IMG/VR virus record: IMGVR_UViG_2671180444_000002
Reading direction: 5' to 3' (one strand)
DNA: 25,038 bases
Origin: a virus
Taxonomy: Duplodnaviria > Heunggongvirae > Uroviricota > Caudoviricetes
Every line of letters begins with the position of its first letter. The first letter of the stretch is position 1. Below are positions 19,465-25,038 of this stretch, one piece after another. A program made the translations under genes and the position numbers. Under the pieces are notes generated by a model that worked only from the letters and a program-made list of their open reading frames with translations, made no database searches and had not been told where the DNA came from.

Positions 19465-23145
<3,681 letters not shown>

Positions 23146-23171
<26 letters not shown>

Positions 23172-23691
23172 TCAGCAACCCCGGTATCAGTTCATCCAGC
23201 GCGGCTGCTTTGTTCATGGCTTTGATGATATCCCGTTTCAGGAAATCAACATGTCGGTTTTCCAGTTCCGGAAAACGCCGCTGCACCGACAGGGGGATCC
23301 CGTCGAGAATACTGGCAATTTCACCTGCGATCCGCGACAGCACGAAAGTACAGAATGCGGTTTCCACCACTTCAGCGGAGTCTCTGGCATTTTTCAGCTC
23401 CTGTGCGTCGGCCTGCGCACGCGTAAGTCGATGGCGTTCGTACTCAATAGTCCCTGGCTGGAGATCTGTCTCGCTGGCCTGCCGCAGTTCTTCAACTTCC
23501 CGGCGCAGCTTTTCGTTCTCAATTTCAGCATCCCTTTCGGCATACCATCTTATAACGGCGGCAGAGTCATAAAGCACCTCATTACCCTTGCCACCGCCTC
23601 GCAGAACGGGCATTCCCTGTTCCTGCCAGTTCTGAATGGTACGGATACTCGCACCGAAAATGTCAGCCAGCTGCTTTTTGTTGACTTCCAT
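23146..23691 (-). CDS. Nu1: Terminase small subunit Nu1
   Basis: 181 aa, MEVNKKQLADIFGASIRTIQNWQEQGMPVLRGGGKGNEVLYDSAAVIRWYAERDAEIENEKLRREVEEL..., matches lambda Nu1. Confidence 0.95.
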
Positions 23692-23900
23692 TGTTCATTC
23701 CACGGACAAAAACAGAGAAAGGAAACGACAGAGGCCAAAAAGCCCGTTTTCAGCACCTGTCGTTTCCTTTCTTTTCAGGGGGTGTTTTAAATAAAAACAT
23801 TAGGTTACGGCGAAGAAGAACGGAAACGCCTTAAACCGGAAAATTGTCATAAATAGCGAAAACCCGCGCGCCTTCCGCCCCGTAACCTGTCGGATCGCCG
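23692..23900 (-). promoter_or_regulatory. cos: cos site: cosB (R1, R2, R3 Nu1-binding repeats with an IHF-like A/T tract), cosN (cohesive-end core about 23869-23880) and cosQ-equivalent flank
   Basis: Just upstream of Nu1, colinear with the lambda left end. R elements (plus-strand text): GAAAGGAAACGACAG at about 23716-23733, CTGTCGTTTCCTTTC at about 23757-23776, GAAGAAGAACGGAAACG at about 23811-23830. Minus strand reads ...ACAGGTTACG GGGCGGAAGGCG CGCGGGTTTTCGCTATTTATGA... Confidence 0.8.
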
Positions 23901-24079
23901 GAAAGGACCCGCAAAATGATAATAATTATCATCTACATGTCACAACGTGCATCTACGCCATCAAACCACGTCAAATAATCAATTATGACGCAGGTATCGT
24001 ATTAATTGATCTGCATCAACTTAACGTAAAAACAACTTCAGACAATACAAATCAGCGACACTGAATACAGGGCAACCTC

Positions 24080-24313
24080 ATGTCAACGAAGAACAGAACC
24101 CGCAGAACAACAACCCGCAACATCCGCTTTCCTAACCAAATGATTGAACAAATTAACATCGCTCTTGTTCAAAAAGGGTCCGGGAATTTCTCAGCCTGGG
24201 TCATTGAAGCCTGCCGCCGGAGACTGTGCTCAGAAAAAAGAGTTTCGCCTGAAGCAAACAAAGAAAAGAGTGACATTACTGAATTGCTCAGAAAACAGGT
24301 TAGACCAGATTGA
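24080..24313 (+). CDS. Hypothetical 77-aa protein, probable ribbon-helix-helix DNA-binding fold
   Basis: MSTKNRTRRTTTRNIRFPNQMIEQINIALVQKGSGNFSAWVIEACRRRL...: basic N-terminal tail, short beta-strand (RNIRFP), then two helices; fold assignment is by pattern only. Confidence 0.45.
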   Translation: MSTKNRTRRTTTRNIRFPNQMIEQINIALVQKGSGNFSAWVIEACRRRLCSEKRVSPEANKEKSDITELLRKQVRPD

Positions 24314-24370
24314 AGCAATTTAGATAATCGTGCAGACTACGCCCCCTCATATCACATGGAAGGTACTACA

Positions 24371-24781
24371 ATGGCTCAGGTTGCCATTTTTAAACAAATA
24401 TTCGATAAAGTGCGAAATAATTTAAACTATCACTGGTTTTATTCTGAACTAAAACGTCACAATGTCTCACATTACATTTACTATTTAGCCACAGAGAATA
24501 TTCATCTTGTTCTTGAAAACGATAATACGGTTTTAATAAAAGGACAGGGTAAGGTTGTAAATGTAAGATTTTCAAAAAATAAATGCCTTATAGAAGCCAC
24601 CTTAAAAGGATTCAAATCAGGAGAGTTATCATTTTACGAATACAGGAAAAATCTTGCTACAGCAGGGGTTTTCAGATGGATTACAAATATCCACGAAAAC
24701 AAAAGGTATTACTATACCTTTGATAATTCATTACTCTTTACTGAGAACATACAGAACACTACACAAATATTTCCGCACTAA
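24371..24781 (+). CDS. Hypothetical 136-aa protein, possibly DUF1398 family (YbcV / lambda 'putative envelope protein'-like)
   Basis: AT-rich ORF. Shine-Dalgarno GGAAGG lies 7 nt before the ATG at 24371 ([17 protein letters not shown]...). The ORF track starts 5 codons earlier at 24356. Family assignment is from memory of size and position, not a search. Confidence 0.45.
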
Positions 24782-25038
24782 ATCATAACGTCCGGTTTCT
24801 TCCGTGCCAGAACCGGACTCGCTGGCATGATGAAATATGTGTACCCGGTAACCCCGGTGTGCATCGTTTTTGATTATTCCCGCACACTCGCGCAGAAGGA
24901 GTTCCCCGTCGGGCTACGGTCTCTGTTAATACGGGAATACGGCGACGATTGGATTTGCCCCTATATTTCCAGACATCTGTTATCACTTAACCCATTACAA
25001 GCCCGCTGCCGCAGATATTCCCGTGGCGAGCGATAACC

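Follow-up and report, generated by a model that had tools for sequence, protein, structure and literature searches.

A YlcI/YnfO (DUF3950) family gene beside cos of a lambda-like prophage and its probable ribbon-helix-helix fold

The gene at positions 24080-24313 of a lambda-like prophage, just beyond cos, belongs to the E. coli YlcI/YnfO (DUF3950) family, which is already catalogued and not new. Its 77-residue product probably has a ribbon-helix-helix (RHH) fold, and we give roughly an even chance to the reading that it acts as a dimeric Arc-like repressor of a short cos-proximal unit made up of its own gene and a downstream DUF1398 gene. The prophage lies in reverse orientation in the window, by which we mean the whole 25,038-nucleotide stretch of IMG/VR record IMGVR_UViG_2671180444_000002. 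An earlier note on this DNA had described a 77-residue open reading frame (ORF) at this place and had taken its product for a small RHH-like DNA-binding protein; it had missed the membership in the catalogued YlcI/YnfO (DUF3950) family. The RHH kind itself is very well known, and it is the placement of DUF3950 among RHH regulators that has not been formally recognised before.

The gene and its conserved core

Both the sequence and a program-made ORF list confirmed the ORF, which is made up of the following parts.

24080..24313, + strand: YlcI/YnfO-family (DUF3950) gene, 77 aa, ATG at 24080 and TGA at 24311-24313, stop included (ORF list, Pfam, NCBIfam, RefSeq)
24080..24241, + strand: conserved core, residues 1-54, with a basic arm, putative beta-strand N14-P18, helix A 19-32, loop G33-S-G-N-F-S38 and helix B 37-55
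24242..24310, + strand: variable C-terminal tail, residues 55-77, with a low-confidence helix 61-73 (predicted local distance difference test score, pLDDT, ~58)

The translated product of 24080-24313 is MSTKNRTRRTTTRNIRFPNQMIEQINIALVQKGSGNFSAWVIEACRRRLCSEKRVSPEANKEKSDITELLRKQVRPD. Its length alone lies within chance expectation, because 34 ORFs of at least 30 residues are present in the same 3 kb around the gene. We regard the ORF as a real gene because it matches DUF3950, has a low ratio of nonsynonymous to synonymous substitution (dN/dS) and shares with Shiga toxin (Stx) phages a DNA similarity that starts exactly at the ATG. The match to Pfam DUF3950 (PF13132) scored 72.8 bits against a cut-off of 25 (E 2e-20) and covers residues 21-50, and the match to NCBIfam NF041551 (YlcI_YnfO_N) scored 35.2 bits against a cut-off of 30. 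The protein also matched PHROG phrog_949 (E 6e-33) and is 96% identical to the RefSeq 'YlcI/YnfO family protein'. The similarity to Stx-phage DNA ends at about codon 47 (24080-24220), and both flanks are unrelated. Over the first 50 codons, comparison with divergent alleles gave a dN/dS of 0.03-0.10 at a dS of 0.8-2.0, with synonymous sites near saturation. Because the ratio is this low despite near-saturated synonymous sites, selection acts on the 77-residue protein itself, and its conserved core is under strong purifying selection. The ORF is conserved, a point on which the earlier note had made its proposal depend, as the DUF3950 match and these dN/dS values attest.

The protein contains both core motifs of the family, I-R-F-P and N-F-S-A-W-V-x-x-A-C, and in alignments of 18-30 relatives residues I15, R16, F17, F37, S38, W40, V41, A44 and C45 were invariant or nearly so. 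As had been read from the sequence before, its N-terminus is basic, with five R/K within residues 1-13, and RNIRFP occupies residues 13-18. The Shine-Dalgarno sequence of the gene is weak (AGGG).

Only residues 1-54 form the conserved module, because homology to lambda/HK629 and to phage 434 breaks at 24242. In lambda/HK629 and DLP12, an insert of ~613 bp that contains ybcW replaces the tail-coding segment 24243-24296 and yields a 64-residue protein; in phage 434, 104 bp stand in place of the tail and the DUF1398 gene, bor follows, and the DUF3950 copy again has 64 residues. The Stx1 phage BP-4795 encodes a 75-residue version with another tail, which stands alone between Rz and an HNH/TerS/TerL packaging set. 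What lies downstream of the DUF3950 gene is DUF1398 in the window, ybcW and ybcV in lambda/DLP12, bor in 434 and nothing in BP-4795. The constant feature is a core gene that heads a variable moron slot, adjoins the start of the packaging genes and is antisense to the late operon. Of 5426 complete E. coli genomes, 5211 matched the 1.3 kb that run from cos to the window end, and 2629 have this region in a contiguous version.

Phage HK629, which is of lambda type, carries opposite its late genes an intact 64-residue YlcI homologue (L001 389-583) that is unannotated in the deposited record, and in phage lambda records the stretch matching this homologue carries the label 'hypothetical protein' only. 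The neighbouring ORF that is annotated in HK629, a ybcW homologue, sits within the insert that truncated the YlcI homologue.

Predicted fold and proposed role

AlphaFold2 was run as a single-chain prediction on the full-length protein and on a 58-residue core, with alignments of 21 and 18 relatives. The mean pLDDT was 70.6 for the full length and 73.5 for the core, with values of 75-85 within the core. Both models have an extended segment at residues 14-18, a helix at 19-32, a short loop and a helix at 37-55, which agrees with the short strand and two helices proposed earlier; a further helix at 61-73, of low confidence, appears in the full-length model. Arc structures were present in both Foldseek lists, and HicB (6g26), ParD2, MazE9 and KacA were among the structural neighbours. 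Both lists were dominated by a single fold class.

At the level of profiles, 10 of 30 family members matched the HicB-like PHROG phrog_497 (best E 9.7e-7), and two members each matched Arc-like repressor PHROGs (E about 7e-4 and 9e-4); the best RHH-type PHROG match of the window protein itself reached an E of 0.055 only. A profile-sequence comparison by hhalign, with an Arc sequence verified against PDB 1arq, aligned N14-I-R-F-P18 with Arc N11-L-R-W-P15 in the correct register, the probability, 6%, being negligible. Nothing relevant was returned when PDB sequences were searched with the 77-residue protein and with the family profile, hhalign against single Arc and CopG sequences gave negligible probabilities, and no RHH family was matched when 21 members were scanned against Pfam at E values of up to 10, a null that may be due in part to the Pfam DUF3950 model spanning only residues 21-50. 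No single structural or profile score was significant alone.

RHH proteins typically have a glycine-containing turn with a serine, threonine or asparagine cap (G-x-S/T/N) at the start of helix B. In the window protein the G33-S-G-N-F-S38 turn precedes helix B (37-55), and N36, F37 and S38 are near-invariant. The polar/hydrophobic alternation of T-R-N-I-R-F-P, the basic arm and the G-x-x-N-F-S turn all fit the RHH fold of Arc, Mnt and CopG. The predicted RHH fold is supported by independent lines, each weak alone (models, profiles and register), and we consider it probable. The earlier proposal of a small RHH-like DNA-binding protein gains support from the same sources, namely the AlphaFold2 topology, the PHROG profile matches and the Arc register.

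By analogy with satellite-borne relatives, described below, and with RHH proteins generally, we infer DNA binding, dimerisation, repression, the target DNA and co-transcription with DUF1398. The 77-residue protein would form an Arc/Mnt-like RHH dimer, in which residues 12-18 (T-R-N-I-R-F-P) of the two chains would pair as a beta-ribbon that reads the DNA, with T12, N14 and R16 turned towards the major groove. The intertwined core would be built from helices 19-32 and 37-55, the G-S-G-N-F-S loop would cap helix B against the phosphate, and the basic N-terminal arm would supply extra backbone contacts. The DUF3950 gene would be the first of a short unit that is read antisense to the late operon and is placed between cos and the lysis cassette, and its product would be a sequence-specific and probably autoregulatory repressor of this DUF3950-DUF1398 unit, acting at a site somewhere within the 168-bp interval from cosQ to the ATG. 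Among the three roles offered earlier, that of a regulator of the moron or the downstream gene remains the best. The surrounding features are as follows.

21246-23171, - strand: gpA
23146..23691, - strand: Nu1 (small terminase), the divergent neighbour (Pfam Phage_Nu1, E 2.4e-101)
23869-23880: cosN equivalent, 12-nt cohesive end, here CGCCTTCCGCCC (alignment with lambda/HK629, DLP12 and Qin-type loci)
23904-23910: cosQ (phage 434 cosQ annotation projected via BLAST alignment)
23912..24079: cosQ-to-ATG interval, 168 bp, presumed promoter/operator region (sites are sequence features only)
24368..24781, + strand: DUF1398 gene (YdfO/YbcV homologue), AT-rich, probably co-transcribed (Pfam PF07166, E 3e-43)
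24790..24818: hairpin GTCCGGTT...AACCGGAC, rich in guanine and cytosine (GC), right after the DUF1398 stop, possible end of the two-gene unit (sequence reading and - strand fold)

The DUF3950 gene begins ~170 bp past cosQ and diverges from Nu1/gpA; its placement just beyond cos and its orientation, reading away from cos and opposite to both of these - strand genes, had been given correctly in the earlier note. The order of Nu1 homologue, cos, DUF3950 gene and DUF1398 gene is the K-12 Qin type (nohA-ynfO-ydfO). A position between the lysis and terminase genes, antisense to the late genes, is also found in IH5, LR-71-1, PhiR49_1, DLP12, HK629, 434 and BP-4795; the lysis genes of the window prophage fall outside the window end, and the layout was judged from these related loci.

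The DUF3950 and DUF1398 genes are probably co-transcribed. We favour this reading of the sequence because the gap between them is 54 bp, a terminator scan found no terminator-like site between them, GGAAGG, a good Shine-Dalgarno sequence, stands 8 nt ahead of the DUF1398 ATG, and the GC-rich hairpin follows the DUF1398 gene; no T-run follows this hairpin (24790-24818), and the terminator scan did not call it. The DUF1398 product matched YdfO (PDB 2HH8) with an E of 1.4e-69, and the GC content of its gene is 0.30-0.35, that of the packaging genes 0.52-0.56. For the homologous K-12 unit, regulated expression has been documented: Qin ydfO went up 116-fold under ionic liquid stress (PMC4077768), and ylcI transcripts overlapped ybcW in at least half of the RNA-sequencing samples (PMC12288877).

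Within the cosQ-to-ATG interval, a repeat search found a palindrome adjoining cosQ (ATGATAAT-A-ATTATCAT, 23916-23932). The interval also contains CATCTAC twice (23930, 23950), the inverted repeat ATCAATTATGACG/CGTATTAATTGAT at 23978-24010 and three ACGT-centred sites. The word CACGTCAA occurs only once in the 25-kb window, at 23967-23974, and is found again in the upstream regions of 11 of 27 family genes. A search for words common to the upstream region and the downstream or cosB regions gave nothing convincing, and perfect inverted repeats upstream of family genes were not significantly enriched in most loci, the window included. The interval is 97-100% identical across lambda, DLP12, Qin-type loci, E. 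albertii and PhiR70_1, and phylogenetic footprinting is uninformative because of this near-invariance among lambda-like phages. A - strand promoter-like site reading into Nu1 (23943-23916, GTGACA-16-TATCAT) was rejected, as lambda/HK629 reads TATCAC there and the final T of the -10 is lost.

Several observations weigh against an Arc-like repressor of the cos-proximal unit. The AlphaFold2 models place a weak helix at residues 8-13, and a monomer model cannot show a beta-ribbon. A consensus scan of 23912-24079 found no convincing + strand sigma-70 promoter, the GTG-N6-CAC array of the satellite relatives is absent upstream of the window gene, and the near-identity of the upstream interval may simply reflect the conserved cos module. 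No 8-mer is shared between the window upstream region and the unrelated regions upstream of Stx-phage alleles with the same beta-strand residues. The literature searched yielded no experimental study of any YlcI/YnfO family member, and as late as 2024 the uncharacterised genes of K-12 still included ynfO and ydfO.

Around the unit, three further observations were made. The cosN equivalent (23869-23880) differs from lambda at 5 of 12 positions (GGGCGGAAGGCG vs lambda GGGCGGCGACCT, in lambda orientation); every lambda-type locus in the comparison, that of PhiR49_1 as the closest phage among them, has the lambda cosN sequence, and cosQ and the flanks are conserved. The window variant was found exactly in 14 IMG/VR viral contigs and, because of this recurrence, is a real allele and not a sequencing error.

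A ~100-bp element 3' of the DUF1398 gene (24839-24949) is 89-94% conserved among phages with differing neighbour genes. It lies upstream of bor in phage 434 and just past Rz in BP-4795 and in the prophage of locus L005, it also occurs in PhiR70_1, and the annotated bor promoter of HK629 is at its end. The RNA fold of 24782-24960 was no better than those of shuffled sequences (z -0.2), and an Rfam scan of 23600-25038 gave only chance microRNA-like matches on the cosB hairpin.

The last 89 bases of the window (24950-25038) are non-prophage and 100% identical to a segment found at another place in strain IH5; their counterpart in strain LR-71-1 borders an IS3-family transposase gene. We take this segment to resemble the right end of IS2. 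An insertion sequence element is inserted just downstream of the cos-proximal moron unit, and this explains the many extra matching places per genome as well as the plasmid matches.

Relatives, satellites and other explanations

An HMMER search that covered 1.84 billion cluster representatives returned only 108 matches, many of which were frameshifted copies from noisy assemblies. In a scan of one genome per species, genuine relatives were confined to Enterobacterales and Gilliamella, and those of Enterobacterales at 35-55% identity keep I-R-F-P and N-F-S-A-W-V-x-x-A-C. Dozens of 95%-identity matches (L016-L047, L059, L067) came from unrelated taxa, among them Streptomyces, Cohnella, Pedobacter and Flavobacterium, on contigs of ~3.5 or ~48.5 kb. 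The former are presumably the nanopore lambda control amplicon and the latter whole lambda. Almost certainly, these matches are lambda control DNA left in assemblies, and many frameshifted DUF3950 'proteins' in databases almost certainly share this origin.

About 17 of 36 non-E. coli loci have a tyrosine integrase, often with AlpA, downstream and convergent, and a primase operon upstream and divergent. This int/alpA-primase layout is the regulatory zone of satellites, either like P4 or phage-inducible chromosomal islands (PICIs) or helper-embedded. The zone nomenclature comes from a preprint (10.1101/2022.07.18.500453) that makes no mention of DUF3950. The upstream 150 nt of the DUF3950 genes were read for palindromes (L003 4480-4713; L005 7445-8000; L049-L078), and ahead of the satellite genes there are two to four palindrome-like sites of 12 bp, GTG-N6-CAC, which lie around -100, -77 and -30 relative to the ATG. 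Their six central bases vary from element to element and co-vary with the residues before I-R-F-P, a correlation in which shared ancestry is not controlled.

Residues Y-K-G before I-R-F-P: palindrome GTGTTTAAACAC
Residues T-K-G before I-R-F-P: palindrome GTGCACAWACAC
Residues K-K-N before I-R-F-P: palindrome CTGTGCGCACAG or TGGTACGTACCA
Residues K-K-H before I-R-F-P: palindrome GTGTGYACCCAC
Residues R-K-D before I-R-F-P: palindrome TTGTCCGTACAA

Such an array layout would be that of an autoregulated repressor with cognate operators, and it is the best available hint to the role of the domain. The layout appears to resemble that of an immunity repressor and to be undescribed so far.

Two satellite proteins, P0180 (L003 4714-5103) and P0213 (L005 8001-8363), join a DUF3950 core to the DNA-binding N-terminal part of a small terminase of the Terminase_2 type; the Pfam Terminase_2 match of P0213 had an E of 1.6e-11. 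The satellite of locus L005 has, together with the P0213 fusion, a separate 60-residue DUF3950 gene and a full-length TerS, and it appears to be inserted in the terminase region of a Stx-like prophage with its own 66-residue DUF3950 copy. P0180 and P0213 were also considered as Rpp packaging redirectors, an idea that was given up, as Rpp is a protein of 144-153 residues with a TerS-like DNA-binding domain and no RHH (PMC6739421).

Other relatives are either chromosomal, with TonB-dependent receptors, cydDC or transporters as neighbours, or part of an integrative conjugative element. A chromosomal subfamily, MDKM-T/S-x-SKTRR-K/R-HIRFPH..., is kept across Pantoea, Erwinia and Tatumella outside recognisable mobile elements (L056 5995-6219; L079 and L074-L083 near 5989; L052 5998), where its neighbours include a TonB-dependent receptor alongside a CopC-like gene, cydDC, or transporters; its members may be domesticated regulators. 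No relative outside the E. coli lambdoid prophages has a DUF1398 neighbour.

These loci bear on what else the window protein might do. It could be a trans-acting RHH regulator whose targets lie elsewhere, in prophage early or late regions beyond the window or among host genes, with DUF1398 as unrelated cargo, an explanation that we find unlikely but not negligible. It would accord with the conservation of the DUF3950 core while every flank is swapped, and with the unrelated loci of the chromosomal relatives (TonB receptors, cydDC, transporters). Alleles with identical DNA-reading residues have no shared operator-like word upstream, and the missing 8-mer in common with the Stx-phage alleles leaves room for such a role. 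Most characterised small RHH repressors autoregulate, however, as do Arc, Mnt, CopG and the RHH antitoxins, and the satellite relatives have operator-like arrays directly upstream of their own gene.

The most interesting possibility is that the protein is a DNA-binding factor for cos and packaging or for helper-satellite cross-talk, which would bind near cos or mimic or antagonise the homologous regulators of PICI/P4-like satellites, which parasitise lambdoid phages; we consider it distinctly unlikely. The gene is always beside the packaging start whatever the terminase, which is Nu1/gpA in the window and an HNH, P27-type TerS and TerL set in BP-4795 and L005, but all support for such a role is positional, and morons such as bor are known to accumulate between Rz and cos, so that position may mean nothing. 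Lambdoid-helper satellites have one or two DUF3950 genes in their regulatory zone, and the 8-mer CACGTCAA is common to the window upstream region and 10 satellite upstream regions; the residues before I-R-F-P differ, though, between the phage copy, which has T-R-N, and the satellite copies. Likewise, P0180 and P0213 join the DUF3950 domain to a small-terminase DNA-binding part, but this part may be just another swapped DNA-binding module, and Rpp, the packaging redirector known from satellites, is another protein.

A broader version, which we regard as improbable, would make DUF3950 proteins the repressors, that is, the immunity determinants, of a large class of P4, PICI and helper-embedded satellites of Enterobacterales, each with its own GTG-N6-CAC operators, and the lambdoid cos-side copy a helper relative that cross-talks with them by repressing or by being sensed. 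If true, DUF3950 satellite repressors and a helper copy would add a new layer to helper-satellite conflict. The satellite arrays may matter more than the window gene and could point to missing repressors of Gram-negative phage satellites.

It is very unlikely that the protein binds no DNA and is a small helical protein with another function or none, carried along as a hitch-hiking relic inside the conserved cos module. The lack of any structural or profile score significant alone, the weak Shine-Dalgarno sequence (AGGG) without a clear promoter, and the residence of the DLP12 and Qin copies in defective prophages would fit a relic, which is contradicted by the dN/dS of 0.03-0.10 at a dS of 0.8-2.0, by the retention of both core motifs in relatives at 35-55% identity across Enterobacterales and by structural-neighbour lists dominated by one fold class.

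Least probable of all is an RHH antitoxin of a type II toxin-antitoxin-like pair, in which the core would bind the operator and the tail (residues 55-77) would neutralise a DUF1398 toxin; evidence against it is that both the tail and the genes downstream are exchanged from one phage to another. In lambda/DLP12 the tail is replaced and ybcW lies between the DUF3950 and DUF1398-type genes, and DUF3950 occurs without DUF1398 in BP-4795 and other Stx phages, in 434, in satellites and in chromosomal copies, whereas in phage Tritos the match was confined to the DUF1398 part of the query sequence. The antitoxin-like role suggested in the earlier note is thus unlikely, its pairing with the downstream gene not being conserved, and the check that it had proposed, whether neighbours in homologous loci encode toxins, found no conserved partner, DUF1398 adjoining the gene only in E. 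coli lambdoid loci. Neither the DUF3950 nor the DUF1398 gene matched a defence system in PADLOC, DUF1398 matched no toxin model there, and its only Pfam side match, to HEPN_AbiA_CTD, stayed below threshold (15.8 bits vs 27). The effect reported for YdfO overexpression is raised stress resistance, not toxicity (cited in PMC4077768).

For the gene in this window, an Arc-like repressor of the cos-proximal unit remains our preferred reading, and what is gained is chiefly an improved annotation for an ordinary gene that had been catalogued before. YlcI/YnfO copies are present in prophages of most E. coli genomes, and the RHH assignment leads to a concrete and cheap hypothesis on the control of cos-proximal morons (ydfO/ybcV, possibly bor) in lysogens.

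Comparison with known systems

The nearest known counterparts are YnfO of the Qin prophage and YlcI of DLP12 in E. coli K-12. The window gene belongs to the same family, with 96% identity to RefSeq YlcI/YnfO, and shares the Qin locus layout. The YlcI, lambda and 434 copies (64 residues) differ from it in the C-terminal tail, through the ybcW-containing insert or a deletion after residue 54.

RHH antitoxins of the HicB type and others (HicB, ParD, KacA/TacA, MazE9) provide the best profile bridge, phrog_497 being matched by 10 of 30 members. They differ in that DUF3950 has neither a conserved toxin partner nor the HicB N-terminal domain, and its tail is short and variable.

With divergently transcribed master repressors of phage satellites, such as Stl of the Staphylococcus aureus pathogenicity islands, the satellite DUF3950 relatives share a place typical of repressors, by int/alpA, divergent from the replication/packaging operon and with repeated palindromes over the promoter region. 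Stl is an unrelated, larger protein, and the window copy sits in a helper-type prophage without a palindrome array; the analogy is a functional one.

The likeness to Arc and Mnt of phage P22 lies in similar size, the same predicted order of elements, the correspondence of N-I-R-F-P with Arc N11-L-R-W-P15 and the fact that all are phage-encoded. In Arc, N11 and R13 read the operator, as seen in the Arc-operator structure 1PAR. Differences are the lack of a significant sequence or profile match (6% in hhalign; no Pfam Arc or RHH family), an inter-helix loop one residue longer in the window protein, and the location of the genes, which is the immunity region for Arc and Mnt and the side of cos for the window gene. 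While membership of the Arc family is not established by sequence, it is Arc or Mnt that the 77-residue protein would be most like in its way of working.

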